NCBI GenBank assembly: GCA_016204695.1 | Contig: JACQKD010000001.1 | Span: 4,976-68,975, forward strand | Length of the DNA stretch: 64,000 nucleotides | Direction of reading: 5' to 3' | Source: Candidatus Kaiserbacteria bacterium | Lineage (GTDB): Bacteria > Patescibacteriota > Minisyncoccia > Phycocordibacterales > UBA918 | Shown: in pieces, positions 3,252 through 43,191 of the stretch | How positions within the stretch are numbered: the stretch's first letter is position 1 | Layout of the letters: each line of letters starts with the position of its first letter | Translations under genes and position numbers: made by a program | Notes under the pieces: model-generated | What the model was told of the DNA's origin: nothing | Database searches by the model: none | What the model saw: only the letters and a program-made list of their open reading frames with translations

Positions 3252-3509
3252 TTGCATGATCTGGACGAGATTGCGGCGTATCTTGCGAATGAGAGTGAAA
3301 CACTCGCAAAGAGGGTCATCAACAACCTTGAGGGGTTTTGTTTTGTACTGGGCATTATGCCGGAGTTGGGTCGTCCATCGGAAATAGTGGGAGTGCGCAA
3401 ACTGGTTACTACGCGCTACCGTTATAAAATAATCTATGAGATTCGTACTGCTAAAAAAGAAGTCGTGATTCTGCGAGTCTATCACAGCACTCGAAAGATG
3501 CAGTATTAG
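3252..3509 (+). CDS. ParE/RelE-family type II toxin. It is N-terminally truncated or uses a TTG start.
   Basis: LHDLDEIAAYLANESETLAKRVINNLEGFCFVLGIMPELGRPSEIVGVRKLVTTRYRYKIIYEIRTAKKEVVILRVYHSTR matches the ParE consensus (DLxxIxxYI...P..GR.....R.L.....Y.I.Y.I....V.ILRV.H..R). Only a TTG start is available. An in-frame TGA at 3189-3191 lies inside the upstream repeat element. Confidence 0.65.
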   Translation: MHDLDEIAAYLANESETLAKRVINNLEGFCFVLGIMPELGRPSEIVGVRKLVTTRYRYKIIYEIRTAKKEVVILRVYHSTRKMQY

Positions 3510-11912: not shown

Positions 11913-12437
11913 ATGAAATATTTTTCCGGCAGAGGAATCAACGTGAAGCCGCACAGCGGCTTCACGTTGATTGAGCTCCTCGTCGTCATCGCCATCATCG
12001 GTCTTCTGGCGAGCGTAGTGATGGCGAATTTGAACAGTGCGCGGGCGAAGGCACGGGATGCGCGGCGGCGCGCGGACATGAAAGAGCTGTATAAAGCGCT
12101 TGAACTTTACTACGATACCAATGGCGCATACCCATCAACAGGGAACGCGTGGATAGGCAATTGTGCATCGTACGGAAGTTATGGCACGTCAGGAGCAAGC
12201 GGATATATCCCGAACTTGGCACCGACCTATATACCGACGCTTCCACTTGATCCAAAATACAACGGTTCCAGCGGTTGCTATCTCTACAACTCTAATGGCG
12301 TCGAGTATAAATTACTTGCCCATTATACTGTCGAAAGTATCTGTCCGGTGCCGTCATCTGATGCGTTCTGGGATCCGGTGCGAAATGGTCAGTGTACATT
12401 CCAAATCTCGACCTCAGGCGCGCGTTCAACGTACTGA
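11913..12437 (+). CDS. Type IV pilin (second paralog).
   Basis: G|FTLIELLVVIAIIGLLASVVMANLNSARAKARDARRRADMKELYKALELYYDTNGAYP. The N-terminal 33 aa are identical to the pilin at 9324, with about 100 bp of nucleotide similarity. Confidence 0.85.
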   Translation: MKYFSGRGINVKPHSGFTLIELLVVIAIIGLLASVVMANLNSARAKARDARRRADMKELYKALELYYDTNGAYPSTGNAWIGNCASYGSYGTSGASGYIPNLAPTYIPTLPLDPKYNGSSGCYLYNSNGVEYKLLAHYTVESICPVPSSDAFWDPVRNGQCTFQISTSGARSTY

Positions 12438-12483: not shown

Positions 12484-13140
12484 ATGACTGCCACATTACA
12501 GGCGCAGGTGCGGACCGAGCGCGGGAAGCGCGCGCGCGCTTTGCGCGCGCGCGGCGTGCTTCCCGCCGTTCTCTACGGCCCGAAGGAAGATTCGGCTGCC
12601 CTTTCTCTGTCTCTGCGCGAGTTTGAAAAAGTCTTTAAAGAAGCGGGCGAGTCCACTGTGATTACTCTTACCGGTCTTGACGAAGACAAAGACGTGCTCG
12701 TGCAGGATATCGCCTACGATCCGGTCACCAGTGCGCCGCTCCATGTTGATTTGTATGCAATTGAAAAGGGCAAGAAAGTGACGGTCAATGTGCCGCTTGA
12801 ATTCGTCGGCGAGGCGCCGGTCGTAAAACTTGGCGGCCTCCTGACAAAAGTGCTCCATGAGCTTGAAATCGAGGCCATGCCGAAAGATTTGCCGCACCAG
12901 ATTGAAGTCGATGTTTCATCCATCAGTGATTTCGACAGTCAGATAACCGTCGCGGAGATTGTCGCGCCGGCGGGCGTCTCTATTCTCAATGATCCGGAAG
13001 AAGTCGTGGTGGTCGCGGAGGAGGCAAAAGAAGAGGCAGAAGCGCCGGTGGAGCAGGTGGATATGGACGCAATTGAGGTCGAAGAGAAGGGCAAGAAGGA
13101 GGGAGAGGAGGGTGAAAACGAGGCAAAATCTGAAGAATAA
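12484..13140 (+). CDS. rplY: 50S ribosomal protein L25 / general stress protein Ctc, with an acidic C-terminal tail.
   Basis: LQAQVRTERGKRARALRARGVLPAVLYG...DVLVQDIAYDPVTSAPLHVDL matches the L25/Ctc family. The Glu/Lys-rich tail is typical of Ctc forms. Confidence 0.85.
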   Translation: MTATLQAQVRTERGKRARALRARGVLPAVLYGPKEDSAALSLSLREFEKVFKEAGESTVITLTGLDEDKDVLVQDIAYDPVTSAPLHVDLYAIEKGKKVTVNVPLEFVGEAPVVKLGGLLTKVLHELEIEAMPKDLPHQIEVDVSSISDFDSQITVAEIVAPAGVSILNDPEEVVVVAEEAKEEAEAPVEQVDMDAIEVEEKGKKEGEEGENEAKSEE

Positions 13141-13148
13141 CACCGATC

Positions 13149-13207
13149 TGCGGTGCGGGGTTCTTGTGAAAATGTACAAGAATAGTGTACCCCCGCTTTT
13201 CTGAAAG
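13149..13207 (+). terminator. Intrinsic terminator after rplY (nested hairpin plus T-tract).
   Basis: gcggggttcttgt gaaaatgt acaagaa tagtgta cccccgc followed by ttttct. Confidence 0.6.
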
Positions 13208-13237: not shown

Positions 13238-14584
13238 ATGCGACCTTTTTTGTCTGTGGTGGTGTGTGCGCTTGTTGCCGGGGCGCTTTTTGTGTATTTG
13301 CCCGCTGTTTATGCCCAAAATCCCGATCTGACTCCCGAACAGCGTGCGGCCCTTGAGAAACAATTGGCCGAACTTGAAGAAGAGATGAAGCGCACCGATG
13401 CGACGATTGCGGGTCTGCGCACCGAAGGGGAGTCTCTCAAACGCGACATCGGCATACTCGAAGGAGAGATCAAGAAAGCGAAACTGAAAGTCCGTACCAC
13501 CGAGATCAAGATCCAACAGCTCTCCAAGGGTATCAACATCCATGCCGCCACCATCGAAGAACTCTCGGAGAAAATAAAGAGCGAGCAAGAGTCGCTTGCC
13601 CAGATCCTGCGAAAGACGCGCGAAATCGACAACTACTCTCTCGTTGAAGCTGTGTTTTCATCGGAAGATATTTCCAAATTTTTCAGCGACCTTGATTCGT
13701 TTGTTTCCATCAAGGAGGCTCTGCAAGCCTCATTTGAAGAACTGCGTGCCGCGCGCGAAGAGACCTCCGGCGCGAAGGTTGCGCTTGAAGGCGAACGTAC
13801 CGAGGCCCAAATCTTGCGGTCTGAATTGGTGCTGGCCCAGAAAGAAGTAGAGCAGAAGGAGGCACAGAAGCGCACCCTGCTCAAGGAGACGCAGGGACAG
13901 GAAGGTATGTACAAGGGACTGAAGGCGACGCAGGAAAAGCTGGCGGCCGAGATCAGAGCACGTCTCTTTCCCTTGCGCGATGCGCAGGGAATCCCCTTCG
14001 GTACCGCAGTGCAGTACGCCAAGACCGCATCGGCGCAGACCGGCGTGCGCGCCGCGCTCATTCTTGCGATTCTGTCACAAGAATCCGACCTTGGGGCCAA
14101 TGTGGGCCAGTGCCTGATCACCGACCTCGCGACCGGTGACGGAAAGGGGAAAAATACCGGTACGCCGTTTGCAGGCGTGATGAAGGTTCCGAGAGACACC
14201 GTACCGTTTGAGCGGATCACCAAAGGAGTTGGCCGCGACTGGTCCAACACGCCCGTTTCCTGTCCACAACCGGGCGGCTACGGCGGGGCGATGGGTCCGA
14301 CACAGTTCATTCCTTCCACATGGGAGCTCTATGAAGGACGCCTTGCCTCGGTACTCGGCGTCGCAGCGACCGACCCATGGAATCCTTCGCATGCGATCAC
14401 GGCGACCGCTCTCTATCTCACGGATGTCGGCGCGGCCGGAGGCACCTACAGCGCGGAGCATACCGCCGCCGCCAAATACAACGCCGGGGGCAATTGGGCG
14501 ACCCTCGGTCAGGTCTACGCCAACTCTGTCATGGGGAAAGCCGCGCAATTCCAAAAAGACATCGATTTCCTTGAGGCGAATTAG
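13238..14584 (+). CDS. Secreted coiled-coil protein with a C-terminal lytic transglycosylase (MltB/lysozyme-like) domain.
   Basis: Signal peptide. About 270 aa of heptad-like coiled coil (EnvC-like). C-terminal ILSQESDLG ... [13 protein letters not shown] matches the MltB-type transglycosylase signature (E-S-x-x-G ... GPMQFMP.TW). Confidence 0.7.
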
Positions 14585-14922: not shown

Positions 14923-15007
14923 CGGAGGACAGCAAAGGAACGATTCCGTTTTGCGGAATCGTTCCTTTGCTGTTTCTTTGGGCAGGGTATGGCATACTTT
15001 TGTAACC

Positions 15008-17997: not shown

Positions 17998-18074
17998 GCC
18001 GCCTTAGCTCAGTTGGTAGAGCAACGCACTTGTAATGCGTAGGTTTCCCCGGTTCGAGTCCGGGAGGCGGCTCC
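17998..18074 (+). tRNA. tRNA-Thr (anticodon TGT), CCA encoded.
   Basis: GCCGCCT acceptor pairs with AGGCGGC. D-arm GCTCAGTTGGTAGAGC. Anticodon stem ACGCA/TGCGT with loop CTTGTAA. T-arm CCCGGTTCGAGTCCGGG. Extended -10 TGTGATACAT lies about 8 nt upstream of the 5' end. Confidence 0.85.
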
Positions 18075-18878: not shown

Positions 18879-18934
18879 CTGTCCCGAGTCATCACGCGGT
18901 TTCATAGAACCGCGTGATGACAAATCTCCAGCTC

Positions 18935-24184: not shown

Positions 24185-24238
24185 GTGTTAGAAAGTAGCG
24201 ACAAAGAGCGGTATTTTTGCTATACTACAGACAACAAA

Positions 24239-26359
24239 ATGGCTAAAAACACATCTCCCAAAACGCTAAAAGTAAAGGTTTCTGAAAAAGTGAAGGTTTA
24301 TGATGCCACGAGCATTACCGTGCTTGAAGGGCTTGACCCGGTGCGCAAGCGGCCGGGCATGTACATCGGTACGACCGGTACGGATGGTCTCCACCATCTT
24401 ATTTGGGAAGTTTTTGATAACTCCCGCGACGAGGCGATGGGCGGATTTGCCGACCGTGTCGAGGTCGTGCTTCTGCCGGACAATCGCATTCGTGTCGTCG
24501 ACAACGGCCGCGGCAATCCGGTGGATATGCACAAGCAGACGAATGTGTCCGCGCTTGAGACCATCATGACGACGCTTCACGCCGGAGGAAAATTTGGCGG
24601 CGAAGGGTACAAGGTTTCCGGCGGACTCCATGGTGTCGGCGTGTCGGTGGTCAACGCGCTCTCGACGTATGTCCGCGCCGACGTCTACCGCGACGGCGGT
24701 CACTTCGTGCAGGAATATGAAATCGGCAAGCCGAAGGCGAAGGTGAAAAAGGTCGGCGCGTCGGACCTCAACGGCACGATTATCACCTTCGAGCCGGATA
24801 TCTCCATCTTCAAAGAAATTTCATTCGAGTGGAATCGTATCGTCGCGCACTTGCGCCAGCAGGCGTATTTGGTCAAAGGGATGCACTTGCGGGTGATTGA
24901 CGCGCGAGAGACGAAAGTGCCGAATCTCGACAACACGTTTTGGTTTGCCGACCTCGGTGTTGAAGCGCCGTCGCAGACGTTCTACTTCGAAGGCGGTTTG
25001 CGCTCTCTCGTCGCATTCCACAATCAGTATCAGAAGCCCATTCACCGACACATTTTTTATGTCGAGAAAGAAAATGTTGACGCGGCGGTGCTTTCGGTCG
25101 AAGTCGCATTGCAGTATGTGGACGACATCTCCGCGCGCATCACCGCCTTTGCCAACAATATCCACAACGCCGAGCACGGCACGCACGTCACCGGCTTCAA
25201 GACCGCGCTCACCCGCACGCTGAATAATTACGCGCGCAAGAACAATTTTATAAAAGAAAAAGACGAGTCGTTCACCGGCGAAGATGTGCTCGAAGGCATC
25301 ACCGTCGTCATCTCGGTGAAGATGCCGGAAATACAATTTGAAGGACAGACCAAGAGCAAACTCGGTTCGGTGGAGGCGCGCAGTGCGGTCGAGACGGTCT
25401 TCGGCGACGCCTTTGCGACATTTCTTGAGGAGAACCCGGACGACGCCAAGGCGATCGCAAACAAAGTCATCATTGCGGTGAAGGCGCGCAAGGCCGCAAA
25501 GGCGGCGAAGGACTCCGTGCTCCGCAAGGGCGCGCTTGAGGGCATGACGCTTCCGGGCAAACTCGCCGATTGTCAGACCAAGAGCGCGGAAGAATCGGAG
25601 CTCTTCATCGTGGAGGGCGACAGCGCCGGAGGAAGTGCGAAAATGGGACGCGATCGAAGGACGCAGGCGATCTTGCCTCTGCGGGGGAAGATACTCAATG
25701 TCGAGAGAGCGCGCATCGACAAGATGCTCGATTCCGAGCAGATTAAAAATCTCGTGATTGCGCTCGGGACCGCCATCGGCGATGTCTTCGACCTTTCGAA
25801 ACTGCGCTATCACAAGATAATCATCGCGACTGATGCGGATGTCGACGGTGCGCACATCCGCACGCTTCTTCTCACTCTTTTCTATCGCTACTTCCGGCCG
25901 GTCATAGACGGCGGATATGTCTATATCGCCCAGCCGCCGCTCTACAAAATCCAAAAAGGGAAGGCGACCACGTATGCGTACACGGATGCCGAAAAATTTG
26001 AAATTCTCGGTGAGGAGGGCGAGTCGGCGCAGATCGAGGGAAGTGCTCCGGAGATGGAGGTCGAAGGAGGGAATGAGTCCGTTGAAGAGGAGGATGCCGA
26101 TTCGTCAGTCGACGAAGAAGGAGAAACGTCAAAGCGGAAAATAAAAACGCACATCCAGCGGTACAAAGGACTCGGAGAGATGAACGCCGAAGAATTGTGG
26201 GAGACGACCATGAATCCCGAGAACCGCATCTTGAAGCAGGTGCATGTCGAGGACGCCGCAGACGCCGACCGCGTGTTCGACATCCTCATGGGCACCGATG
26301 TCGGCAGTCGCAAGTCTTTCATCCAGTCGAACGCCCACATGGCGAATTTGGATATTTGA
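24239..26359 (+). CDS. gyrB: DNA gyrase subunit B.
   Basis: GLDPVRKRPGMYIGTTG, HHLIWEVFDNSRDEAMGG (GHKL ATPase), the Toprim EGDSAGGSAKMGRDR..QAILPLRGKILNVE, and C-terminal GLGEMN. It contains a ~45-aa acidic insertion before the C-terminal tail. Confidence 0.95.
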   Translation: MAKNTSPKTLKVKVSEKVKVYDATSITVLEGLDPVRKRPGMYIGTTGTDGLHHLIWEVFDNSRDEAMGGFADRVEVVLLPDNRIRVVDNGRGNPVDMHKQTNVSALETIMTTLHAGGKFGGEGYKVSGGLHGVGVSVVNALSTYVRADVYRDGGHFVQEYEIGKPKAKVKKVGASDLNGTIITFEPDISIFKEISFEWNRIVAHLRQQAYLVKGMHLRVIDARETKVPNLDNTFWFADLGVEAPSQTFYFEGGLRSLVAFHNQYQKPIHRHIFYVEKENVDAAVLSVEVALQYVDDISARITAFANNIHNAEHGTHVTGFKTALTRTLNNYARKNNFIKEKDESFTGEDVLEGITVVISVKMPEIQFEGQTKSKLGSVEARSAVETVFGDAFATFLEENPDDAKAIANKVIIAVKARKAAKAAKDSVLRKGALEGMTLPGKLADCQTKSAEESELFIVEGDSAGGSAKMGRDRRTQAILPLRGKILNVERARIDKMLDSEQIKNLVIALGTAIGDVFDLSKLRYHKIIIATDADVDGAHIRTLLLTLFYRYFRPVIDGGYVYIAQPPLYKIQKGKATTYAYTDAEKFEILGEEGESAQIEGSAPEMEVEGGNESVEEEDADSSVDEEGETSKRKIKTHIQRYKGLGEMNAEELWETTMNPENRILKQVHVEDAADADRVFDILMGTDVGSRKSFIQSNAHMANLDI

Positions 26360-26371
26360 GCGTTGTTGCAA

Positions 26372-26413
26372 GCAGACCGAAAAATCCGCCTAAGGCGGAT
26401 TTTTCGGTCTGCT
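26372..26413. terminator. Perfect inverted-repeat hairpin between convergent gyrB and the surface-protein gene. Likely a bidirectional terminator.
   Basis: gcagaccgaaaaatccgcc taa ggcggatttttcggtctgc. The T-tract is on the plus side and the A-tract on the other. Confidence 0.7.
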
Positions 26414-26433
26414 TTCCGTCTCGATCCATTCTC

Positions 26434-27510
26434 TTAATCCTCGATATCGACTGTCTTTGAGAAAGAATTGTTGGCCGCGTTGATGTCGCCGCCTCCTGTT
26501 ACGGTCGCCGAGATGCGCTCGCTACCGTCTTTGCTGACGTCGTCAAATTGCAGGGTGATGATCTGGCGTTCGTTCGGTTTCAGAGGAGCGTTCGCACTTG
26601 ATTTGTATGTAAAGTCGGCATCGGTCGGAAGTGTTGCGGAGAAATACCAAACATCCGATGTTTTGGTGCCGATATTTTTCACTTCAAAGCGCAGTGCGCC
26701 GCGTTCGTCTTCTTCAAGCGAAGAATGAGGGGTAAAGATTTTTGTGCTCGTGTCGTATGTGCCGACGCCGATGAAGGTGGCCGCGAGATCGGTGAACCCG
26801 CTCGGATCGGACTCCGGCATCTTCGTAACGACCACCGGCACGGTCCGGTATTGTACGGGAGGTATGTCCGCCGATGGCGGCTCCGGATCAGATGTTTCTT
26901 CCGGTTCCGGTGTTGGTTCGGGCCGGGGCTCCGGCGGCGCGGAGTCGTTGTTGTCCTCTTCGGCGACGGTACCGTTGTCTGTCGTGGCAAGACCGTCCTC
27001 GCTGACTGCCGGATTGACGACGGTCACTTTGGCGGTCTGTGCTTGCGGCTCTTCGCCGTCGGGAGTGAATTCGATCGTGTAGGGTACGTCCGCGTAGCGA
27101 CTGCGTTCGGAGGAAAAGACGACCGCGGCCGATTCCGTATTTTTTCCAAGCGGCACGTTTGTGTCGCATTCGACTTTCGAAAGATTCCCCGACTCGTCTC
27201 GTATTTCGGCAACTACGCCGTCGGTGCATTGGTACGAAAATGCGTACGTTCCATCCGCGCCGGCTCGTGTCCAGGAAACGGTCAAAATCTCTCCCGTATT
27301 GAGAAGGGTCGTATCAGTGGAAAGGGTGAATTGTGTCTGCTCGTTGCGGAAACTCGCGGCGATCGAGCCGAGCGTGTCAAACGCCGCGGGAGCGAGCCGC
27401 ACCGCCTGCACGGCGAGCCATGCCACAAAGACAAGAGCAACGATGAAGCCGATAATGGCGAGGGTTTTGATAATAGTGGTCTTTTGCCGTTCGTTTTCCG
27501 TGCCGTTCAT
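26434..27510 (-). CDS. Membrane-anchored surface/secreted protein (N-terminal TM, Pro/Glu-rich linker). Hypothetical.
   Basis: N-terminal hydrophobic anchor IIKTLAIIGFIVALVFVAWLAV. PEPRPEPTPEPEETSDPEPP linker. No C-terminal sorting signal. Confidence 0.5.
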   Translation of the reverse strand: MNGTENERQKTTIIKTLAIIGFIVALVFVAWLAVQAVRLAPAAFDTLGSIAASFRNEQTQFTLSTDTTLLNTGEILTVSWTRAGADGTYAFSYQCTDGVVAEIRDESGNLSKVECDTNVPLGKNTESAAVVFSSERSRYADVPYTIEFTPDGEEPQAQTAKVTVVNPAVSEDGLATTDNGTVAEEDNNDSAPPEPRPEPTPEPEETSDPEPPSADIPPVQYRTVPVVVTKMPESDPSGFTDLAATFIGVGTYDTSTKIFTPHSSLEEDERGALRFEVKNIGTKTSDVWYFSATLPTDADFTYKSSANAPLKPNERQIITLQFDDVSKDGSERISATVTGGGDINAANNSFSKTVDIED

Positions 27511-27604
27511 AGTGCGGAGAACCTACCATGGTATGCAGTAGGTGTCAAGCTGGTGTAGGTTGACAAGTATTCAATATTGATGCATTGTTTCCCGACTACG
27601 GCCT

Positions 27605-28264
27605 ATGCCTCCCCCGGACAACAACGGACTCTTCGAACGCATTCTTGCTCACAAACTTTCTTTTTTTGTTGTGTTTTTCATCGTGTTTCTGGTGAGTTAC
27701 GGCGTCCTCTATGCCGTCGACTTCATTCCCGAAGCGCCGGAGGAGAAAGAAGAGCCCGTGCCAGCAGTCACGACAGATCCCGAGCCGGCGCCGCTTGTCG
27801 TCACCGACCCGTATCCTAAGCGGATGATCATCGAGGCGCTTGAGAAAGACATCGTGATCCAAAATCCCGAGAGCCGCACCGTGGCGGATCTCGACAAGGC
27901 ACTGCTCACCGGCGCGGTGCGGCATCCCGATTCGGCCACCTTTGCCGAGGATGGGACGATGTTTCTCTTCGGCCATTCAAGCTATCTGCCGCATGTGTTC
28001 AATAAAAACTTTCAGGCATTCAATGATGTCCAGAAACTCGTGTGGGGCGACATCATCAAAGTGCAGTCGTCCAACGTCGAGTACCGCTATCGCGTCAACA
28101 AAGTGTATAAGACTAAGGCCGAAGATGCTTCGGTGACCCTCGGCGGCACGAAGAAGAAGCTTACGCTCGTTACCTGCAATTCCTTCGGCTCAAAGGACGA
28201 GCGGTTTGTCGTCGAGGCGGATCTTGTCGAGACGGTGGCGCTTGCAGAAAACGGCTCTCCATAA
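27605..28264 (+). CDS. Sortase-family transpeptidase.
   Basis: N-terminal TM. Conserved His (MFLFGHSSY), catalytic TLxTC box (KKLTLVTCNSFG) and downstream Arg (ERFVVEADL). Confidence 0.75.
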   Translation: MPPPDNNGLFERILAHKLSFFVVFFIVFLVSYGVLYAVDFIPEAPEEKEEPVPAVTTDPEPAPLVVTDPYPKRMIIEALEKDIVIQNPESRTVADLDKALLTGAVRHPDSATFAEDGTMFLFGHSSYLPHVFNKNFQAFNDVQKLVWGDIIKVQSSNVEYRYRVNKVYKTKAEDASVTLGGTKKKLTLVTCNSFGSKDERFVVEADLVETVALAENGSP

Positions 28265-28437
28265 ACCTGAAATGGGGTGGTTGACTGTTTTCCGAAGAGA
28301 CATCGAACATTGACAAAGAGCAAAATGAGGTATAGCGTTCGGCGCAAAGTTCCTCTCTGTCCGGTGGGGGCAGAGCTTGTTGTTTGATTTGTCATGAATT
28401 GGCCGCGTAAAGGCGTGGCCGTGGAAAGAGGAAAGCC

Positions 28438-29349
28438 ATGAAAAAAGTTGACTCACGGTCTTTTTTTGCCGGTTCTATTTTTTGTTTGTTACTGTGGTGG
28501 CTGATTAGGGTGGCCGTTGGGGCGGACCAGGGATGGAGGCCTTGGTTCGTCAAAAAAGTTCCGCAGTCGCGCGAGGCCTTTGCCCGCGCGATTGAGACGG
28601 ATGACCGCACGATGCTCCGTGTCCCGGCCGGACTGTTTGCCGCGACATGGGGCGGTCGCGGCATGGACCTACCGGTCGGGCCTGACCCGGCAAGTTGGGG
28701 AAGTTTTTTGAGGAGCTCCGAGGTAACCGAGGTGGCATGCACCCCGGAGCTCCTCCGGACTCTCTTTCTTGCCCGGGTTCGTCCTGACATAGGTGAGGTG
28801 GATTTCGCCCTTGAGAGGGAGGCGTGTCTCCCTGGTGAGATGTTCCTCGCGTGGCGGGGGACACCGTTTGTCTCACTGGGTTGCGGGAATCCGGTGAGGC
28901 TGCGAGTGCCTCGCCCGCCTGCCTCGCCTGCTGTTCCGCCCACGACGACGGTTGTTGTGCCGCCCCATCCGCCACCACCGCCGGTTGCGGAGTGCGTTGA
29001 GCTTCACTCTTTCTATCGCGGGAAAGTCGTTTTTCCGACGATAGAAGACCGACCCGCGTGGTTCCACTGCAATCCGTGGTCGGATTGTGTCGTGGACTGT
29101 CTGGACTGGGTGAGCGGCCGGAACGCTCGCCCGTTCCCACGGCTGGGGAGCGACGCGGCCCGGAGCCAGCAGGAAGCGGCTCGGGTTCGCGAGCTCACCG
29201 GCCAAGGGAGCCGTGGCGGGCACGCGGCACTTGAGGGCGCGACCATGATGCCCGTGAGCCGGCACGGACCGACGGTGTTTTGCAAAAAGGGGACCCATGA
29301 GTATTGGGTCCTTTGGCCGGACGGCCGAGTCACGAAAGGACTCGACTGA
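28438..29349 (+). CDS. Secreted hypothetical protein with a compositional-outlier gene (about 68% GC). Trp/Arg/Pro/Cys-rich.
   Basis: Signal peptide plus a Shine-Dalgarno (agaggaaag 7 nt before the ATG). A TTGACA-N15-TATAGC promoter lies about 120 nt upstream. A Pro-rich stretch PPTTTVVVPPHPPPPP occurs. No family recognised. Confidence 0.4.
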   Translation: MKKVDSRSFFAGSIFCLLLWWLIRVAVGADQGWRPWFVKKVPQSREAFARAIETDDRTMLRVPAGLFAATWGGRGMDLPVGPDPASWGSFLRSSEVTEVACTPELLRTLFLARVRPDIGEVDFALEREACLPGEMFLAWRGTPFVSLGCGNPVRLRVPRPPASPAVPPTTTVVVPPHPPPPPVAECVELHSFYRGKVVFPTIEDRPAWFHCNPWSDCVVDCLDWVSGRNARPFPRLGSDAARSQQEAARVRELTGQGSRGGHAALEGATMMPVSRHGPTVFCKKGTHEYWVLWPDGRVTKGLD

Positions 29350-29497
29350 TCCGGTGGTTAGTTGGTGGCGGGGGCTTCACATGCCTTGCCTTACGCCACC
29401 AACTAACCTTCTTTACTATTCTCGCGTGCCCCCTATTACATAAGAGGCAGGTGGGAGTACAGAGGAGAAAGAAATAGTACTTACTAGCGTTTATACA

Positions 29498-32400
29498 TTG
29501 TCTGCCGCTGTTATGGAAAAAATTTTCAGTACGAAAGGTCTTGTTACGGTAGGATTTTCAGTATTCATTGCCGCTCTGGTTGTCTTTACCGTACTGCCGC
29601 GCTTACCCGATATCCAAGCGGCAACGGGTGTTGACTTCAGTCTCGGAGCACTTGCTGTTGATGCATGTTGCGATGACGGAGGTGACGACGGTGGCGGCGA
29701 CACTGGTGATGGTGACGACGGAAGCGGTGGCGGTGGGGACAACGGAGGTGGAGGTGGTGGCGGAGGTGATTGTTGCGGCGGCGGTGAGACACCTCCTCCT
29801 CCAACTCTTTCTGTTTCTTGTACTCCAAGTGATTCTTCAATTCAGACCGGCGGCACGGTGACCTGGCGCGCGACAGTGAGCGGCGTCGACGGCGCGGCGA
29901 CTTTCTCGTGGGCTGATACGGCGGGCGGCACGGCCGCAACAGGCTCGACGCACTCTTGGTCGCGCACCTATAATTCCGCCGGCGCAGTGGGAGCTTCGGT
30001 GATTGCGGTGACGACCACCGGCCAGCGTGCCGAGGCATCCTGCGGGAGCGTTGTGGTGCGACCGATTCCTCAAACCCTCTCTGTTTCCTGCACCCCAAGC
30101 GCGTCCTCAATCCGCACCGGTGAGACGGTGACCTGGCGTGCGACAGTGAGCGGCGTCGACGGCGCGGCCACTTTTTCATGGGCTGACACGGCGGGCGGCA
30201 CGGCCGCAACCGGCTCAACACATTCATGGTCGCGCACCTATAATTCCGCCGGCGCAGTGGGAGCTTCGGTGATTGCGGTGACGACCACCGGCCAGCGTGC
30301 CGAGGCATCCTGCGGGAGCGTCACAGTGACGACGACTCCGCCTCCATCTGTTCCGCTTACCGTCACCTGCCAGGCATCCGTCTCCTCGATTCAAAGCGGC
30401 GGCTCCGTCACATGGACGGCATCTCCGTCGGGCGGCAGTGGCGCCTATCAGTTCAGCTGGTCTGACACCGACGGCGCGCAATTTTCAAGTGGTACGGCGC
30501 ACTCGTGGACTCGGACATATACGACGGCTGGCACCAAGGGTGCTTCTGTCGCTGTCGCCGATACGTTGGGGAACACAAAGACCGCATCCTGCGGGAGCGT
30601 TGTGGTGCGACCGATTCCTCAAAATCTCTCCGTCTCTTGTACCCCGAGCGCATCCTCGATCCAAACCGGCGGTACGGTTACATGGAGAGCGACAGTCAGC
30701 GGCGTTGACGGCGCGGCTTCTTTCTCGTGGGCTGACACGGCGGGCGGCACCGCATCCACGGGCGCAACAAACTCATGGTCGCGCACATACAATACTGCGG
30801 GAACCATCGGCGCATCGGTGATCGCGGTCACAACGACCGGCCAGCGCGCGGAAGCATCCTGCGGGAGTGTTGTGGTGCGAACAACGCCTCCTCCGCCTTC
30901 CGAAACTCCCACCGGCACCATTTCCGCAAACCCCAACCCGTGCCGCATCGCACAGGGAGGGACGCAGTGTGCTTCCAACATCACTTGGTCTACACAGCAC
31001 ACGACGAATGCCACCGTGTGTGTGGATGGTTCACTCTTTGCGAATGCGACATTCGGCAGTCAAAATGCTCCGTGGATTCAGGCAAATCATAACTACGTCT
31101 TTACCCTTTTCAACGGCGGCAGTTGCGGTGGCACAGTACTTGACCGCGTGACGGTGACGGCGATTCCGCCGGCGGCCCAGGGCGCTCCGACCTGTACGCT
31201 TACCGCAAATCCTTCCTCGATCAATTCCGGAAACACGGCGATGCTCTCGTGGACGACGACGGGCGCGACAAGCGGTTCCATTAATAATGGCGTTGGGGCG
31301 ATGATTCCGATCGCAAACGGCTCAAAGAGTGTCTCTCCGACGAATAATACGACATATACCGCGACGGTAACGGGTCCCGGAGGCAGTGCGGATTGTTCAA
31401 CATCTGTGACCGTACTGCCGGTGGTGGGAGACCCTGTGGCTCGGTGCGACTTTTTCAGCGCAAGTCCGAGCGTGGTTGACCGCGGCGGCATCACGACGCT
31501 CCGATGGGAAACGACGAATGCTTCGCGAGTGTCTATCAACGGCGCGGGCGCAAGCGCGGTAGACGGCAGTATGGATGTGCAAGTGCAGAACGACACGACC
31601 TACACGCTCACCGCTCATGGATTTACCAATGATACCTGTTCAACGACGGTGACGGTGCGGCCGACGGTCATGCGCACGCTCGTCGTGCAAAAGCTCGGCA
31701 ACGGCACCGGGTCGGTGACGACGACCGGCTTGGATTGTCCGGCAGGGAACACTATTTGCAGTAATCAGTACAGTCAGGGAACCAATCTCGTGCTGAACGC
31801 GGCGGCATCCGCCGGTTCCACATTTGCGGGCTGGGGCGGCGACTGTTCGGCGAATGGCGCAGTAACGATGGACACCAACAAGACCTGTACGGCGACATTC
31901 GTACTTGCGCCTGTCGGTGCGCCGACTTGCAGTATTTCAGCGGCTCCCGCTTCCATCGCGTCCGGTTCTTCGACGACGCTCTCATGGACGACGGCCAATG
32001 CAACGAGCGGCTCTATCGACAACGGCGTCGGCGCGATGATTCCGATCGCGGGCGGCTCACGGAGTGTCACTCCATCAGGCACCACCACATACACCGCGAC
32101 GGTGAGCGGCTCCGGAGGAACGGCGAATTGCGCCGTCACGGTAGTGGTGTCTCCGCAATCCGAATCGCTTCGCTGTGATTCCTTCAGCGCAAGCCCAAGC
32201 TCCATTGATGAAGGGGATACGACGACGCTTCGTTGGGAGACCACCGGCGCGACGAGTGTGGAAATCTCGGATGGCATCGGTTCGGTCGGCTCCGACGGAA
32301 GCAGGACGGTGAGCCCGGATAATGACACGACCTATACGCTTGTTGCTCGACGCGGAAGCGACACCGCTACCTGCTCGACGAGCGTGAATGTGGACGAGAA

Positions 32401-33655
32401 CAATGGCGGAGGAGGAGGTTCGTCAAGCTCCTCACCACGCTGTGAGCTCTTCCGCGCATCGGACGATGACATCACCGCCGGCGAGCGAGTGACGCTCCGC
32501 TGGAGGACGGAGGACGGCAGTGAGTTGCGTATCGAAGATGACCGCGACAACGAGATATTCGAGACCAATGACGATGACGATGTCGACGACGGCGAAGTAA
32601 CCGTGCGTCCGACGCGCGACACTCGCTACACGCTCACCGTCGAGCGCGGAAGCCGCGATGATGAATGTACGACGCGCATCGACGTTGAAGACCGGGAAGT
32701 CTCACTCATTCTTGACCGCGATCAACAGCCGCTGACCTCCATCTCCCTCTCACAGGTGCCGTATACCGGCTTTGACGCAGGACCGTTTCTGACGACTGTC
32801 TTCTACGTCCTCCTTGCGCTCTGGGCCGCATCGGTGACCTATGTGCTCGTTATCAAAAAGGGTTCCGTATTCGGTGTCGCTCTGCGTCGGCAGGCGCCCT
32901 ACCGGCCCGCACATGCGGTGGCGATTCCCCATGGCGAGTACCGATCAAACGTCCGGTACCCGCGGATGTACGCGGAAGCCACCGCCACTGCTGTGAATTC
33001 CTCCCCGTTTGCCGCTCCGGTGCGCGGATATGGCGCGGTGGCGATGACCGACGATGAAGTCGAGCCGGAGACCGAAGATGCCGATACCTACCTCAAGGAA
33101 CGTGCGCACGAGCTCAATCTCATTCTTTCCAATGATGCGGTGCGCTTCATTTTGGAACGCGCGAATTCAAGGGAAGATCGCATGACGTTTCTTGATGAGG
33201 TGAGCGCTCGCGCGAAGGCGATCTATCCTCGCGAAGACGGCTGGGTCGTCGTCAATCGCGAGCGTATTGAAATGCTCGCCGCGAGCCAGCCCGTGTCTGC
33301 GGCGTCACCGGTTTCTGTTGAAGAAGAGCCGAAGGATATCGCAAAGTTGATGCGGGTGCCCACGCTTGCCGAGGCGATTGTAACGGGCAATGTCACTGCG
33401 GCATATACCGCCCTTGGCGATCTGCCGCTTGTCGCGCTCGCCGACGCAGTGGGCGATCTCGATGCGCTCTTTCGAGTACGGCATGACGAAGAGATTGATG
33501 TCCCCGGGACCCTTGTGGAAGCGGCGGCTCGTCTCTCGGACGACCAACTTGAAGAAGTGATCCAATCGCTTGCAAGCGCCATTGATGGCGTATATCGCGA
33601 CGAGGCGGCGGCCGTGAAGCTTGCCATCATAAAGGCGATCAAGGCGGTCGCGTAA
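29498..33655 (+). CDS. Giant repeat-containing cell-surface protein (putative adhesin). It has an N-terminal signal anchor, a Gly/Asp/Cys low-complexity segment, 4 PKD/Ig-like repeats, about 5 Cys-bounded beta-domain repeats, a Listeria/Bacteroides-repeat-like module, an acidic Asp-rich region, a TM segment and a 270-aa cytoplasmic tail.
   Basis: 1385 aa. Repeats SVSCTPS..S.IQTGGTVTWRATVSGVDGAATFSWADTAGGTA.TG..HSWSRTYN.AG..GASVIAVTTTGQRAEASCGSV occur four times. A second repeat family C..SA.P.SI..G.TT.L.W.TT.A.S..I.NG.G.... is present. The segment ..SQVPYTGFDAGPFLTTVFYVLLALWAASVTYVLVIKKG (pentapeptide-TM-KK) is followed by a long tail. Confidence 0.7.
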   Translation: MSAAVMEKIFSTKGLVTVGFSVFIAALVVFTVLPRLPDIQAATGVDFSLGALAVDACCDDGGDDGGGDTGDGDDGSGGGGDNGGGGGGGGDCCGGGETPPPPTLSVSCTPSDSSIQTGGTVTWRATVSGVDGAATFSWADTAGGTAATGSTHSWSRTYNSAGAVGASVIAVTTTGQRAEASCGSVVVRPIPQTLSVSCTPSASSIRTGETVTWRATVSGVDGAATFSWADTAGGTAATGSTHSWSRTYNSAGAVGASVIAVTTTGQRAEASCGSVTVTTTPPPSVPLTVTCQASVSSIQSGGSVTWTASPSGGSGAYQFSWSDTDGAQFSSGTAHSWTRTYTTAGTKGASVAVADTLGNTKTASCGSVVVRPIPQNLSVSCTPSASSIQTGGTVTWRATVSGVDGAASFSWADTAGGTASTGATNSWSRTYNTAGTIGASVIAVTTTGQRAEASCGSVVVRTTPPPPSETPTGTISANPNPCRIAQGGTQCASNITWSTQHTTNATVCVDGSLFANATFGSQNAPWIQANHNYVFTLFNGGSCGGTVLDRVTVTAIPPAAQGAPTCTLTANPSSINSGNTAMLSWTTTGATSGSINNGVGAMIPIANGSKSVSPTNNTTYTATVTGPGGSADCSTSVTVLPVVGDPVARCDFFSASPSVVDRGGITTLRWETTNASRVSINGAGASAVDGSMDVQVQNDTTYTLTAHGFTNDTCSTTVTVRPTVMRTLVVQKLGNGTGSVTTTGLDCPAGNTICSNQYSQGTNLVLNAAASAGSTFAGWGGDCSANGAVTMDTNKTCTATFVLAPVGAPTCSISAAPASIASGSSTTLSWTTANATSGSIDNGVGAMIPIAGGSRSVTPSGTTTYTATVSGSGGTANCAVTVVVSPQSESLRCDSFSASPSSIDEGDTTTLRWETTGATSVEISDGIGSVGSDGSRTVSPDNDTTYTLVARRGSDTATCSTSVNVDENNGGGGGSSSSSPRCELFRASDDDITAGERVTLRWRTEDGSELRIEDDRDNEIFETNDDDDVDDGEVTVRPTRDTRYTLTVERGSRDDECTTRIDVEDREVSLILDRDQQPLTSISLSQVPYTGFDAGPFLTTVFYVLLALWAASVTYVLVIKKGSVFGVALRRQAPYRPAHAVAIPHGEYRSNVRYPRMYAEATATAVNSSPFAAPVRGYGAVAMTDDEVEPETEDADTYLKERAHELNLILSNDAVRFILERANSREDRMTFLDEVSARAKAIYPREDGWVVVNRERIEMLAASQPVSAASPVSVEEEPKDIAKLMRVPTLAEAIVTGNVTAAYTALGDLPLVALADAVGDLDALFRVRHDEEIDVPGTLVEAAARLSDDQLEEVIQSLASAIDGVYRDEAAAVKLAIIKAIKAVA
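29807..30895 (+). repeat. Tandem array of four ~270-276-bp coding repeats inside the giant surface-protein gene.
   Basis: Units start at about 29807, 30077, 30353 and 30625. Units 1 and 2 are about 95% identical at nucleotide level. Unit 3 has diverged. Unit 4 is close to unit 1. Confidence 0.85.
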
Positions 33656-33671
33656 GAAGATTTAAAATTTT

Positions 33672-33716
33672 AAGGGCACCAAAAAATCCGCCTCCGGCGG
33701 ATTTTTTGGTGCCCTT
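33672..33716. terminator. Inverted-repeat hairpin after the giant surface-protein gene. Its sequence is related to the hairpin at 26372-26413.
   Basis: aagggcaccaaaaaatccgcc tcc ggcggattttttggtgccctt. Shares the core AAAAATCCGCC-N3-GGCGGATTTTT with the hairpin at 26372. Confidence 0.7.
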
Positions 33717-33803
33717 TACCAGTGATCACTTCTACTATAATGTAGCGGCGGCGAGGTAGTGGTTGTCTGGGCCAAATGTATATAACCCGAAGGAGGGAAG
33801 GGT

Positions 33804-33995
33804 ATGAGGAAGAAAATCAGGCCTATCTTGTTGGCATGGTGGTTTCTTCTGCAATGGGATCGGAGCGCAGGGTTCCAGGGTCCGTTTGACTCGGAACAAG
33901 CCTGTGCGAAGATACGGCAGGTAATCATCGTCGATCGAGACAGAAGGACGTTTCAGCACTTTTTGGTCGGAGAATGTATTTCCGATCAGGGTTAA
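33804..33995 (+). CDS. Small hypothetical protein (63 aa, hydrophobic N-terminus) with a strong Shine-Dalgarno.
   Basis: gaaggagggaagggt ATG. TATAAT sits about 65 nt upstream. No homology recognised. Confidence 0.25.
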   Translation: MRKKIRPILLAWWFLLQWDRSAGFQGPFDSEQACAKIRQVIIVDRDRRTFQHFLVGECISDQG

Positions 33996-34031
33996 CCTAC
34001 ACTCGTCAAACAGTACTACCTCCGCTTCCAT

Positions 34032-34069
34032 AACAGCCGAGGGGATCGCTTGCGATCCCCTCGGCTGTT
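34032..34069. terminator. Hairpin downstream of thrS (minus strand).
   Basis: aacagccgaggggatcgc ttgc gatcccctcggctgtt immediately 3' of the thrS stop. Confidence 0.6.
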
Positions 34070-34071
34070 CC

Positions 34072-35826
34072 TCATTTCTTCTCCGTAATTTCTTTCTTGA
34101 GCCGCTCGATGAGGGCGTCGACGCTACTCTCGCCGAGCTTGCCGTTGTCGCGGCTTTCGATGGTGACCTGCTTGCCCTCCACTTCCTTGTCACCAATGAC
34201 AAGCGCGTACGGCGACTTCGAGAGTTTCCAGTCGCGTATCTTTTTGCCGAGTGTTTCGTTTCGTTCGTCGAGCTCCGCGCGGATGCCCGCGGCTTTGAGC
34301 GATTCCGACACCTCCTGCGCGAACGCCATGTGGTGCTCGCCAATCGGCAGAACCGCCGCCTGCACCGGCGAGAGCCAGAGCGGGAAGTTGCCCGCGGTGT
34401 GCTCAATATAGACGCTCAAGAATCGTTCCAAGGAACCCGCGATAGCCAAGTGAATCATGACAGGCATCTTGTCCTTCCCGTCGGTGTCGGTATAGACGAG
34501 TCCGAAACGCGCCGGCTGGACGAAGTCGAGCTGTCCGGTCGCAAGCTGGTGCTCGCGGCCGATGGCGTCCATTGCCATGAAGTCGATTTTCGGCCCGTAG
34601 AAAGCGGCTTCGCCCGGAGCGATGAAGTACTCAAAATTGCTCGACTTGGCGATGTTCTCAAGCTGTGACTGCGCGCGCTCCCAGAGCGCCTCGTCGCCGA
34701 GGTATTTTTCCGGCTCTGCCGGGTCGCGGAAAGAAAGTCGTGCGCGGAACTGCATGCCCATGACGCGATAGAATTCCACAACCATTTCCATGATTGACTG
34801 GTATTCGCTTTCAATCTGGTCGACGGTGCAGAAGATGTGGCTATCGTCTTGAGTGATCGCACGCACCCGTGAGAGGCCGCCAAGCTCGCCGGTTTTCTCG
34901 TCACGGTAGACTTCCGTCGTACTCATGTAGCGGATGGGGAGGTCGCGATAACTTCTCGGCCGCGAGACGTAGATCTGTTGATGGTGCGGACAGTTCATGG
35001 GCTTCAGCACAAACTGGTCTTTCGTTTCCTGGCTCTTCACGAGGAAGAGTTCGTGGCCGAATTTGTCCCAGTGGCCGGAGACTTTGTACAGGTCGTTTTT
35101 GGTGATGTGGGGAATCCAGACCTTCTGGAATCCTCGCGCGAGCCGGAGACCTTGCGAGAACGCGTTTATTTCTTCTCGCAATATCGTGCCTTTGGGCGTG
35201 AACAGCGGCAGACCGCTACCGACGAGGTCGGAAGTGGCGAAGAGGTCAAGCTCTCGGCCGAGCTTGCGATGGTCGCGTTTTTTGGCTTCCTCCTGCATGC
35301 GGAGGTATGCATCGAGGGCTTCTTTCGTTTCAAAGGCGAGGCCGTAGATGCGAGTGAGCATGGGCTTCGTCTCGTCGCCTCGCCAGTACGCGCCCGCGAC
35401 GCGGTCGAGCTTGAAGGAGTCCGGGGCTATATCTTGCGCGGGATGCTCCGCGTGTCCTCCTTTGCAGAGGTCGATAAATCCGTCAATCGTATAGAACGTG
35501 AGCGTTTTGCCTTCACCGGCAAATTCGTCTATGAGCTCACACTTGTATTCGTTCCATGAGAATTCTTTTTTCGCTTCTTCAGCGGATACCTCTCTACGCT
35601 CGAATGCCGTCCAGCTTTTCAGTTTCTCTCGCATTTTTTCCTCAATCTTCGGAAGGTCGCTTTCCGAGATCGGGGAGGGAAGCTCGAAGTCCTGATAGAA
35701 CCCGTCTTCGACGGCCGGTCCTATGGCATTCTTCGCGCCCGGGTACAGCTCACGGACGGATGCGGCCAAAAGGTGCGCGAGTGTGTGGCGGATATGATCA
35801 AGCGATTCCTTCGGTTTGTCGTTCAT
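34072..35826 (-). CDS. thrS: Threonine--tRNA ligase (short form lacking the TGS and N-terminal editing-associated domains).
   Basis: HTLAHLLAASV..., class II motifs (FRDE-like ...RYMSTTEVYRDEKTGELGGLSRVRAITQDDSHIF), HLAIAGSLERF, and the anticodon-binding C-terminal domain. Confidence 0.95.
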   Translation of the reverse strand: MNDKPKESLDHIRHTLAHLLAASVRELYPGAKNAIGPAVEDGFYQDFELPSPISESDLPKIEEKMREKLKSWTAFERREVSAEEAKKEFSWNEYKCELIDEFAGEGKTLTFYTIDGFIDLCKGGHAEHPAQDIAPDSFKLDRVAGAYWRGDETKPMLTRIYGLAFETKEALDAYLRMQEEAKKRDHRKLGRELDLFATSDLVGSGLPLFTPKGTILREEINAFSQGLRLARGFQKVWIPHITKNDLYKVSGHWDKFGHELFLVKSQETKDQFVLKPMNCPHHQQIYVSRPRSYRDLPIRYMSTTEVYRDEKTGELGGLSRVRAITQDDSHIFCTVDQIESEYQSIMEMVVEFYRVMGMQFRARLSFRDPAEPEKYLGDEALWERAQSQLENIAKSSNFEYFIAPGEAAFYGPKIDFMAMDAIGREHQLATGQLDFVQPARFGLVYTDTDGKDKMPVMIHLAIAGSLERFLSVYIEHTAGNFPLWLSPVQAAVLPIGEHHMAFAQEVSESLKAAGIRAELDERNETLGKKIRDWKLSKSPYALVIGDKEVEGKQVTIESRDNGKLGESSVDALIERLKKEITEKK

Positions 35827-36082
35827 ATAACGTTGATTACTGTGTTGGGATAAAAGTACCACGAAGACCGGCCAAACGAAAACGCCTCCCAAGGGGAGGC
35901 GTTTTCGTTTTGTTTTTGGTACAAAAACAACCTCCCCGCTATATAGCGGTCGTGGCGGTTGTAGTCGTGCCAGTAATGTGCATCCGATACATTTTACAAC
36001 CTCTGCATTTTTGAAGCAACAAAAAGGTGTTGACGACGAAGCTTTTCGAGATTATTTTGTGGCCAGGAAGGAGGTGATCTGG

Positions 36083-36268: not shown

Positions 36269-36309
36269 TATGTTCGGGGCGCCGATCCCAAGTCGGCGCC
36301 CCAGAGTTT

Positions 36310-43098: not shown

Positions 43099-43191
43099 AG
43101 GGGGGCGTATGGAAACGGCCGCAAAAGTCCGAAGGACTTTTGCGGCCGTTTCCATTACGAAATTTATTACGAGGGATGATACAATCTCTGC

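Follow-up and report, generated by a model that had tools for sequence, protein, structure and literature searches.

We analysed a 64,000-nt stretch (hereafter the window) from the genome of a Candidatus Kaiserbacteria bacterium (assembly GCA_016204695.1, contig JACQKD010000001.1, positions 4,976 to 68,975 of the forward strand), assigned by its annotation to the Parcubacteria group of Patescibacteria/candidate phyla radiation (CPR). The subject is a block of surface-protein genes between gyrB and thrS that is bracketed by two hairpins, H1 and H2. The block encodes an anchored membrane protein (p358), a sortase, a high-GC protein (p303) and a giant repeat protein of 1385 amino acids (aa), which carries the pentapeptide VPYTG just ahead of a transmembrane (TM) helix. 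This gene content had been proposed in a sequence-only reading of the same DNA, and open reading frames (ORFs) and Pfam searches bore it out. Sequences used for comparison are designated by L numbers. The main features are as follows.

24185-26359, plus strand: gyrB, 724 aa.
26370-26414, no strand: hairpin H1, AAGCAGACCGAAAAATCCGCC-TAA-GGCGGATTTTTCGGTCTGCTT, a perfect 21-bp stem with a 3-nt loop.
26434-27510, minus strand: p358, 358 aa, with an N-terminal TM helix anchor and a Pro/Glu-rich linker.
27511-27604, no strand: 94-nt intergenic region between the divergent p358 and sortase genes, with presumed promoters.
27605-28264, plus strand: sortase, 219 aa, with an N-terminal TM helix; Pfam PF04203.
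28438-29349, plus strand: p303, 303 aa, ~65% GC (63-67% GC stretch).
29498-33655, plus strand: 1385-aa surface protein, probable ATG start at 29513.
33672-33716, no strand: hairpin H2, AAGGGCACCAAAAAATCCGCC-TCC-GGCGGATTTTTTGGTGCCCTT, a perfect 21-bp stem with a 3-nt loop.
34072-35892, minus strand: thrS, ATG at about 35826.

The two hairpins lie where they had been placed before and proved to be longer and more alike than noted, with 21-bp stems whose arms are identical at 17 of 21 positions, including an 11-nt loop-proximal core. All four differences between the arms are compensated in the opposite arm, and identity in the outer stem is 6/10. H1 begins 11 nt past the gyrB stop and ends 20 nt ahead of the convergent p358 stop, while H2 follows the stop of the 1385-aa gene by 17 nt. 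The claim that the pair sits exactly at the borders of the block was only partly upheld: the bracketing stands, but H2 does not directly abut thrS, from which ~315 nt with a 63-aa ORF and a second hairpin separate it. The core pattern AAAAATCCGCC-N3-GGCGGATTTTT occurs exactly twice in the window, even when up to two mismatches are allowed, and not once in 100 shuffled versions of it. Folded as RNA from either strand, H1 and H2 reach -38 to -39 kcal/mol (z = -7.7 to -9.1). Since H1 is identical in L119 and L120, two independent short-read Logan assemblies, it is not an assembly artefact.

Both hairpins have the same internal layout. In H1, an inner stem TCCGCC/GGCGGA lies between A5 and T5 and is extended by a 10-bp outer stem; more generally, the inner 6-bp GC stem of the pair is bordered by A5-6/T5-6, and pairing continues for 10 bp beyond the A/T runs. 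The T-run is, thus, contained in the 21-bp stem, and none follows the full stem. Based on the location right past stop codons, the equal stability on both strands, the arrangement of A-run, GC stem and T-run and the presence of long hairpins at most gene ends of the window, H1 and H2 would act as bidirectional intrinsic terminators, the former at the junction of the convergent gyrB and p358 genes, the latter between the VPYTG-protein gene and the oppositely oriented thrS, preceded by the small ORF. Known bidirectional rho-independent terminators likewise consist of a GC-rich stem-loop with an A-run and a T-run, which yields a hairpin followed by U residues on either strand, and they too are very stable (here -38 kcal/mol) and lie a few nucleotides past convergent stops. 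H1 and H2 differ from them in two respects: the stem extends 10 perfect bp outside the A/T runs, which places the U-run inside the stem, and the two elements, 7.3 kb apart, are sequence relatives.

Two observations sit uneasily with termination as their function. A terminator consensus scan of the window lists neither H1 nor H2, which is attributable to the T-run lying within the stem and to the lack of one after the full stem. In addition, the 10-bp outer stem is superfluous for canonical termination, and its 3' half would be missing from any transcript that stops in the T-run; even so, all relatives keep it perfectly paired. The arrangement is not peculiar to the locus. The window and six relatives (~173 kb) together contain 31 perfect hairpins with stems of 12 bp or longer, and long perfect hairpins straight after stop codons are the general style of 3' ends in these genomes. 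Post-stop palindromes of the clade measure 13-27 bp, and many lack a trailing T-run or carry it inside the stem. Besides H1 and H2, they include the following perfect palindromes.

2759-2800, 11936-11972, 14929-14973, 18888-18921, 36276-36302 and 43109-43155: palindromes after stop codons in the window.
L122 6019-6064, L125 6603-6660 and L139 5318-5356: palindromes after stop codons in relatives.

The combination of an outer stem, A4-6, a short GC core and a triloop is found again in the window at 43109, 35874 and 2759, as well as in relatives, and this style may represent a lineage-specific terminator or RNA-stability design instead of a locus-specific one.

To place the pair in context, we compared the locus across related genomes. 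The order pheS-pheT-gyrB (forward), p358-like gene (reverse), sortase and p303-like genes (forward), ..., VPYTG-protein gene (forward), thrS and dnaE (reverse) is conserved in at least eight relatives. L121 shares 83% aa identity with the window in gyrB and 74% in thrS, and L122, L125, L136 and L139 share 54-56% in thrS; synteny is further seen on the gyrB side in L141 and L142-L145 and on the thrS side in L138 and L061. The block is complete in L121, L122, L125, L136, L139, L141 and L142 and partial in L138 and L061. Sortase identity to the window among syntenic relatives is 44-68%, compared to 54-74% for thrS. In L137, the most distant family member, the VPYTG gene occupies a different chromosomal location. 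Nearly every relative carries long perfect palindromes at both convergent junctions, and their sequences differ. Examples are GATACACAAAAGCGCCGCCCC and TAAAGAAAGCCCGGCGCC after gyrB in L122 and L139, respectively, a 27-bp stem after the VPYTG gene in L125 and GCAAAACACCTCATGAC at a junction of L136. In L142, the two stop codons overlap and no hairpin follows gyrB. The junction hairpins of L122, L125, L136, L139 and L138 are unrelated or only partly similar to H1 and H2. As the same junctions bear unrelated hairpins or none in distant relatives, the locus is older than the hairpin pair.

These data bear on the earlier suggestion that the hairpins are boundary repeats of an inserted island, that is, attachment site-like or target-duplication repeats at the ends of a horizontally acquired segment with the surface genes. 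Two related palindromes exactly at the block borders would fit such an origin, as would the raised GC content of p303 and the 5' part of the large gene (60-67% versus 55%). We nevertheless regard it as highly improbable. The same genes lie in the same order between the same neighbours in relatives down to 54% thrS identity, with border hairpins that are unrelated (L122, L125, L136 and L139) or, after gyrB in L142, missing; the synteny comparison that the sequence-only reading had called for, therefore, uncovered the locus in genomes without H-type hairpins, contrary to what an island predicts. No integrase, transposase or other mobility gene was found among the four block proteins using Pfam and NCBIfam, and no tRNA gene adjoins the block, the nearest being at 17998 and 62190. 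The rise in GC is accompanied by raised GC at the second codon position, that is, by a composition rich in Gly, Ala, Pro, Arg and Thr. With the same gene order in at least eight relatives and border hairpins that are unrelated or absent there, the block is, on comparative grounds, not an inserted island but a surface-protein cassette of the chromosome, inherited vertically and ancient within this clade of Parcubacteria.

The high-GC gene p303 also speaks against an inserted island, as it is under strong purifying selection. Its C-terminal half (residues 138-303; 28850-29349) shares ~90% identity with the L141 ortholog, compared to 50-57% for the N-terminal half, and about half of the identical residues use the same codon. 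High C-terminal identity despite many synonymous changes identifies p303 as a real, strongly constrained gene. A structured RNA was considered for the 65% GC stretch at 28.4-29.4 kb and rejected, with no Rfam match and with the p303 ORF conserved through synonymous changes. The protein has an N-terminal hydrophobic helix and contains nine Cys, 12 Trp, 28 Arg and 32 Pro residues; from its sequence, we predict a secreted or membrane-tethered Cys/Trp-rich protein. It is 100% identical to the hypothetical protein HY416_00155 [Candidatus Kaiserbacteria bacterium] at NCBI and belongs to no family recognisable with Pfam or NCBIfam. Its AlphaFold2 (AF2) model, with a mean predicted local distance difference test score (pLDDT) of 54, is too poor to use.

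We then considered how two borders of one locus came to share a hairpin. The sequence-only reading had argued that two independent terminators would not need to share sequence. This argument does not hold for the core itself: among the matches listed, the 25-nt core pattern occurs in >118 genome stretches from many bacterial and archaeal phyla, including Alphaproteobacteria, Clostridia, Bacteroidota, many CPR lineages and DPANN archaea, compared to ~0.07 matches expected by our arithmetic for a random 22-base word in 596 Gb. The core alone can, therefore, arise independently. Most of these generic occurrences are simple hairpins, with no more than two extra paired bases in 77 of the 119 listed. 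No outer-stem consensus or enriched outer-stem word was detected among the 119; a hint of one, 'TAGCAC' in L001, L005 and L099, was dropped, as the flanks are not homologous and the word is not enriched.

Within the clade, three of the 31 long perfect hairpins carry the core, namely H1, H2 and its ortholog in L121. When long hairpin arms of the window and its relatives were compared (496 pairs), loop-proximal runs of >5 nt were shared only within this H family. H2 is orthologous to hairpins located between the VPYTG gene and thrS in L061 (GAAGGCACGAAAAAATCCGCC) and L121 (25-bp stem, ...GGGCACAAAAAAATCCGCC), and hairpins of L139 (AGCACGAAAAAAGCCGGGCC) and L138 (AAAAAACTCCCGC) resemble more diverged H2 orthologs. 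At the gyrB junction, L141 contains CGCGCACAAAAAATCCGCC-TAG-..., which is nearer to the thrS-side hairpins than is the window's own H1: its arm GCGCAC-A6-TCCGCC nearly equals the thrS-side arm GGGCAC-A7-TCCGCC of L121. After gyrB, L121 itself retains only a half-hairpin, GGATTTTTTGGCGCC, with a 14/15 match to the right arm of H2. The subclade comprising the window, L141, L121 and L061, thus, has one hairpin type at both junctions, which agrees with the earlier idea of a reused terminator module. The likeness of H1 and H2 would be accounted for most readily if one of them derives from the other. Local duplication or gene conversion in the ancestor of this subclade would have placed a copy of the thrS-side terminator at the gyrB junction, after which both terminators would have stayed palindromic through compensated changes in the outer stem.

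A competing explanation is that H1 and H2 converged on a favoured solution (A-run, TCCGCC and triloop) and that their outer stems match by chance. The many independent origins of the 25-nt core make this conceivable. So does a metagenome scan for the extended hairpin (ACNN-core-NNGT), which returned 10 matches, all unrelated to the window. Furthermore, the exact H1 25-mer, TAA loop included, occurs at a different locus in four Paceibacterota (L048, L089, L114 and L118), a finding that tells against copying, as core identity could reflect convergence instead. Convergence alone leaves several features unexplained. H1 and H2 are equal in stem length (21) and loop length (3) in addition to their partial outer-stem identity, the gyrB-side outer arm of L141 and the thrS-side outer arm of L121 are near-identical, long outer stems are rare among generic core occurrences and, within the clade, the core is confined to the H family, with no unrelated pair sharing >5 loop-proximal bases. 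We, therefore, judge pure convergence to be a real but less likely alternative.

The pair could also belong to a dispersed palindromic family, either similar to repetitive extragenic palindromic (REP) elements or a mobile terminator module, with the bracketing being incidental. REP-type palindromes and paired uptake-sequence terminators are present in several copies per genome and can also serve as terminators, and H1 and H2 resemble them as short, perfect, intergenic 3' palindromes with more than one copy in the genome. In some genomes, the core is indeed multi-copy, with at least five loci in 'bacterium DOLZORAL124_38_8' and two in L117, and our copy count covers 64 kb of a contig that is at least 140 kb long, which leaves room for such a family in the rest of the source genome and, to that extent, weakens the case for local copying. 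Unlike REP-type elements, H1 and H2 are just two copies in 64 kb, both at the sortase locus. No copy beyond the orthologous one was found in ~109 kb from L121, L122, L125, L136, L138 and L139, and the metagenome scan for the extended form yielded no relatives of the window. A dispersed family is, thus, a very doubtful explanation. As separate observations, the copies in the DOLZORAL124_38_8 metagenome-assembled genome from a dolphin oral sample (PDQG01) are represented by L003, L011, L014, L049 and L050, and those of L117 lie at 3343 and 4853, 1.5 kb apart with near-identical flanks; in both genomes, the core may be a reused or duplicated module.

Local copying of a terminator, hence, remains our preferred account of the pair. 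A gene block with matching palindromes at its edges is not necessarily an insertion, since local copying of terminators is possible and one short terminator sequence can arise repeatedly in different phyla. In this respect, the hairpins represent ordinary biology, as terminators that are probably paralogous and not island borders, and the sortase with its VPYTG protein family is the more useful lead.

The sortase was identified by a PF04203 domain (67.3 bits versus a gathering cut-off of 26.6, E 1.4e-18) and an intact His-Cys-Arg triad. His124 (GHSS), Cys191 (LVTCNS) and Arg200 are invariant in six orthologs. Its nearest solved relatives include 2kw8 and 4d70 and comprise Bacillus anthracis and Clostridium sortases (E 1e-6 to 1e-7). 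Among sortase classes A-F and GN, no NCBIfam class cut-off was reached, the best being class D with 40.9 bits versus 165; the score against TIGR01076 was 36.2 bits (cut-off 39.35). The divergently transcribed neighbour p358 consists of two domains joined by the Pro/Glu-rich linker, has no sorting signal and gave no Pfam match. By eye, its second domain resembles CARDB/Ig-like domains. Orthologs of p358 with 31-53% identity are present in every syntenic locus.

The 1385-aa protein contains, in order, a signal/TM segment, a Gly/Asp/Cys-rich stretch, about 12 immunoglobulin (Ig)-like domains, each bracketed by a Cys pair, the VPYTG module and a cytoplasmic tail. Pfam detected Flg_new_2 at residues 750-802. 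The first Ig-like repeats are encoded by near-identical 270-nt units from 29797-30321 onward (89% over 1.9 copies, with more downstream), and their number may be unreliable in short-read assemblies; gene callers split the orthologs of the large protein in L121 and L125. The C-terminal portion comprises the following features.

32756-32860, plus strand: sorting-signal-like module, with VPYTG at 32756-32770, FDAGP, a TM helix at ~32783-32854 and KK.
32861-33652, plus strand: cytoplasmic tail, Cys-free, with a disordered linker, domain A and domain B.
~33068-33283, plus strand: tail domain A, from the AF2 model.
~33344-33649, plus strand: tail domain B, all-helical, from the AF2 model.

VPYTG starts at residue 1087 in the order VPYTG-FDAGP-FLTTVFYVLLALWAASVTYVLVI-KK, and 294 residues follow the motif. 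The peptide containing the candidate site is SLSQVPYTGFDAGP, with T1090 and G1091 in the motif. In all six frames of the window, this is the sole [LIVAFM]PxT[GASN] motif combined with a TM helix. All 30 Cys residues of the large protein precede the motif, and their absence behind the TM helix agrees with an outside/inside topology. AF2 modelling of residues 1085-1385 (pLDDT 78.9) returned the TM helix (model residues 12-35), a disordered linker and two confident domains. The best Foldseek matches of the tail in the PDB were the gamma, delta and delta' chains of clamp loaders over ~208 columns (8giy_B, E 4.6e-4, TM-score 0.27), and Pfam gave a single weak Hda_lid match on domain A (E 0.093). 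Apart from this match, no AAA Pfam family, AAA+ ATPase core or Walker motifs were detected in the tail, which consists just of the linker and two small domains, and a comparison of the tail profile to PDB sequences gave nothing significant. The resemblance to clamp-loader subunits (AAA+ lid plus C-terminal collar), thus, concerns the two-domain fold only, and a lid-plus-collar-like fold without the ATPase core is a weak, model-based lead.

To assess how widespread this arrangement is, we searched for proteins with the same C-terminal module. We found 34 homologs of the C-terminal 336 residues, and a profile search of 1.84 billion representatives retrieved 537 (50% clustering) at E<=1e-30. Members are mostly 700-1900 aa long and carry the module at the C-terminal end. 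Among the 142 best representatives, 140 contain [VILTM]P[YHQE]TG, with VPYTG in 108 of them, and [LIV]PxTG fits 136 of the 140 motif-bearing sequences. Behind the motif come F[DE]AGP, a conserved TM helix and two basic residues, and the extended form of the motif, RDQQPL..ISLxQVPYTGF[DE]AGP, is nearly invariant. In every syntenic locus, the sortase gene lies one to three genes upstream of the VPYTG gene. The sequence-only reading had pointed to VPYTG-TM-KK as a segment that resembles a sorting signal in spite of its long tail; this is substantiated by its near-invariance across a large family and its place beside a sortase in syntenic loci.

The sole occurrence of such a motif in the window, its conservation in 140 of 142 representatives, the intact catalytic triad and the adjacency in syntenic loci argue for VPYTG as a sortase substrate. 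In the mechanism we propose, the membrane sortase would recognise the near-invariant [VIL]P[YH]TG just outside the TM helix of the multi-Ig-like protein and cleave after Thr, linking the variable Ig-repeat ectodomain to the cell wall. Cleavage would leave a membrane-tethered fragment with the conserved two-domain cytoplasmic tail. Cleavage at VPYTG, attachment to the wall and any role of the tail are inferred from sequence comparison.

Several findings weigh against this mechanism. The signal is non-canonical in position, as the pentapeptide, TM helix and basic pair are present and the extreme C-terminus is not: in 140 of 140 motif-bearing representatives, 149-407 residues (median 290) trail the motif. 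No confirmed member with a classical short tail exists among the best 142 representatives. One candidate for a canonical short-tail member, P0033, was rejected, with the tail domain located in the next ORF of what is probably a split gene. The TM helix and its flanks (RDQQPL...FDAGP) show much stronger conservation than those of usual sortase substrates and could serve another purpose, and no sortase is encoded within ~9 kb upstream or 5 kb downstream of the VPYTG gene in L137. As a side observation, the VPYTG protein of L136 (GCA_964527355.1, 10001-11257) stops 11 residues past the basic pair (...VIKKKIEQRVK), and the next, small ORF (11344-11583) matches domain A in the tail of the 1385-aa protein (residues 1199-1257); the gene may be truly split, or the break could stem from a frameshift or an error in the assembly.

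The main alternative to this mechanism is that VPYTG is not a sortase site and that the large protein is a stable type I membrane protein. Its conserved juxtamembrane segment, TM helix and cytoplasmic domains would work jointly, for example, as an envelope-spanning tether or a signalling unit, with the sortase acting on substrates encoded elsewhere. The ever-present tail and its confident folding into two domains in the AF2 model, the unusual conservation of the TM helix and its flanks and the lack of a nearby sortase in L137 would all be expected for such a protein. It also matches no NCBIfam model, a collection that includes models for LPXTG anchors. A stable membrane protein would not account for the [LIV]PxTG consensus in 136 of 140 motif-bearing sequences, for the position of the only such motif in the window immediately ahead of a TM helix and basic pair or for the presence, one to three genes away in each syntenic locus, of a sortase whose triad is intact. 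We regard this alternative as possible, if on balance unlikely. The data on both parts of the locus are probably best explained jointly by two-way terminators, one of them copied, that insulate an ancient locus, and by a sortase that acts on the VPYTG protein. A more speculative version of the sortase reading, which we consider rather improbable, is that the enzyme deliberately splits [VIL]PYTG proteins, a widespread Parcubacteria family, into a wall-anchored, fast-evolving Ig ectodomain and a tethered, lid/collar-like fragment with its own function. The fragment could report surface-protein processing to the cell interior or organise the anchoring site. Such a split would account for a tail that is never lost and for a locus fixed among replication and translation genes.

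Compared to the LPXTG sortase systems of Gram-positive bacteria, the locus shares the Pfam Sortase domain, the His-Cys-Arg triad and the N-terminal membrane anchor of the enzyme, and the large protein, like their substrates, has a signal at its N-terminus, contains repeated Ig-like domains and carries [VIL]PxTG ahead of a TM helix and Lys-Lys. In contrast to these substrates, its signal is not C-terminal, with the conserved cytoplasmic region of 149-407 residues behind it, and conservation extends to the TM helix and to a longer, almost invariant motif; the sortase itself falls far below all NCBIfam class cut-offs. Dedicated pairs of one sortase and one substrate exist, for example, the 'class GN / marine' sortase TIGR03784 with its adjacent target. 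The locus resembles such pairs, as far as their descriptions go, in that one sortase stands beside one protein with a family-specific motif and the pairing is conserved. It differs in the score of the sortase against TIGR03784 (24.5 bits versus a cut-off of 158), in the motif and in the additional cytoplasmic domain.

Sortases are reported for over half of CPR genomes (PMC6744442), and 'sortase motifs' have been mentioned for surface proteins of CPR bacteria (PMC5220378). Full-text literature searches returned nothing relevant on VPYTG or on PYTG together with sortase, and within the literature searched, the family and its non-terminal signal appear to be undescribed. To our knowledge, the substrates of CPR sortases are essentially uncharacterised. 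The pair of one sortase and one substrate, conserved in position within a Parcubacteria clade, defines a large unannotated family with the candidate motif VPYTGF[DE]AGP and offers a testable way to approach how these ultra-small cells construct their surface. If VPYTG is cleaved, this would be the first sortase substrate class known to us with a conserved cytoplasmic domain behind the signal.

On the thrS side, two further features lie between H2 and thrS.

33804-33995, plus strand: 63-aa ORF with a GGAGG ribosome-binding site, beginning MRKKIRPILLAWWFLLQW....
34032-34069, no strand: second hairpin, 17 bp, unrelated to H1/H2, abutting the thrS stop codon.

The region of the small ORF includes a TACTATAAT-like -10 box, and the second hairpin is predicted to be the terminator for both thrS and the 63-aa ORF. 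The ~355 nt that contain them (33717-34071) are absent from L061 and L121, where both convergent genes directly flank the H2-type hairpin.

Ahead of thrS, the minus strand of the window (35991-35874) contains a classical-looking leader-peptide attenuator. Its mini-ORF, MHITGTTTTATTAI*, has seven Thr in 14 codons, and GGGGAGG, 1 nt past the mini-ORF stop, can pair with the 5' arm of a terminator hairpin at 35910-35874 (alternative fold -23.4 kcal/mol). The Rfam model Thr_leader matched this leader below threshold (34.3 bits versus 55, E 0.002). The thrS leader of L121 encodes MMTTTTSHQLVR* and likewise has a terminator in this position. For Streptomyces, leader peptides ahead of thrS have been reported (PMC8079986). 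No Thr-rich mini-ORF was found in the thrS leaders of the more distant relatives L122 (~12954-13160), L136 (~13405-13600) and L139 (~13441-13560, minus strand for all three), which share GGTGGAACCGCG...GATCGTCCG(A/T)GC followed by a terminator. The combination resembles a T-box core and antiterminator, with GGTGGAACCGCG recognised by eye, but Rfam gave no T-box match in these leaders at the gathering or the E<=1 threshold. The mechanism of thrS control may have switched within one clade. At the other end of the locus, gyrB of the window (724 aa) has no intein; in L142-L145 (P0038 lineage; for example, L143 64-3438), gyrB is ~1125-1135 aa long and contains one (Pfam Intein_splicing).

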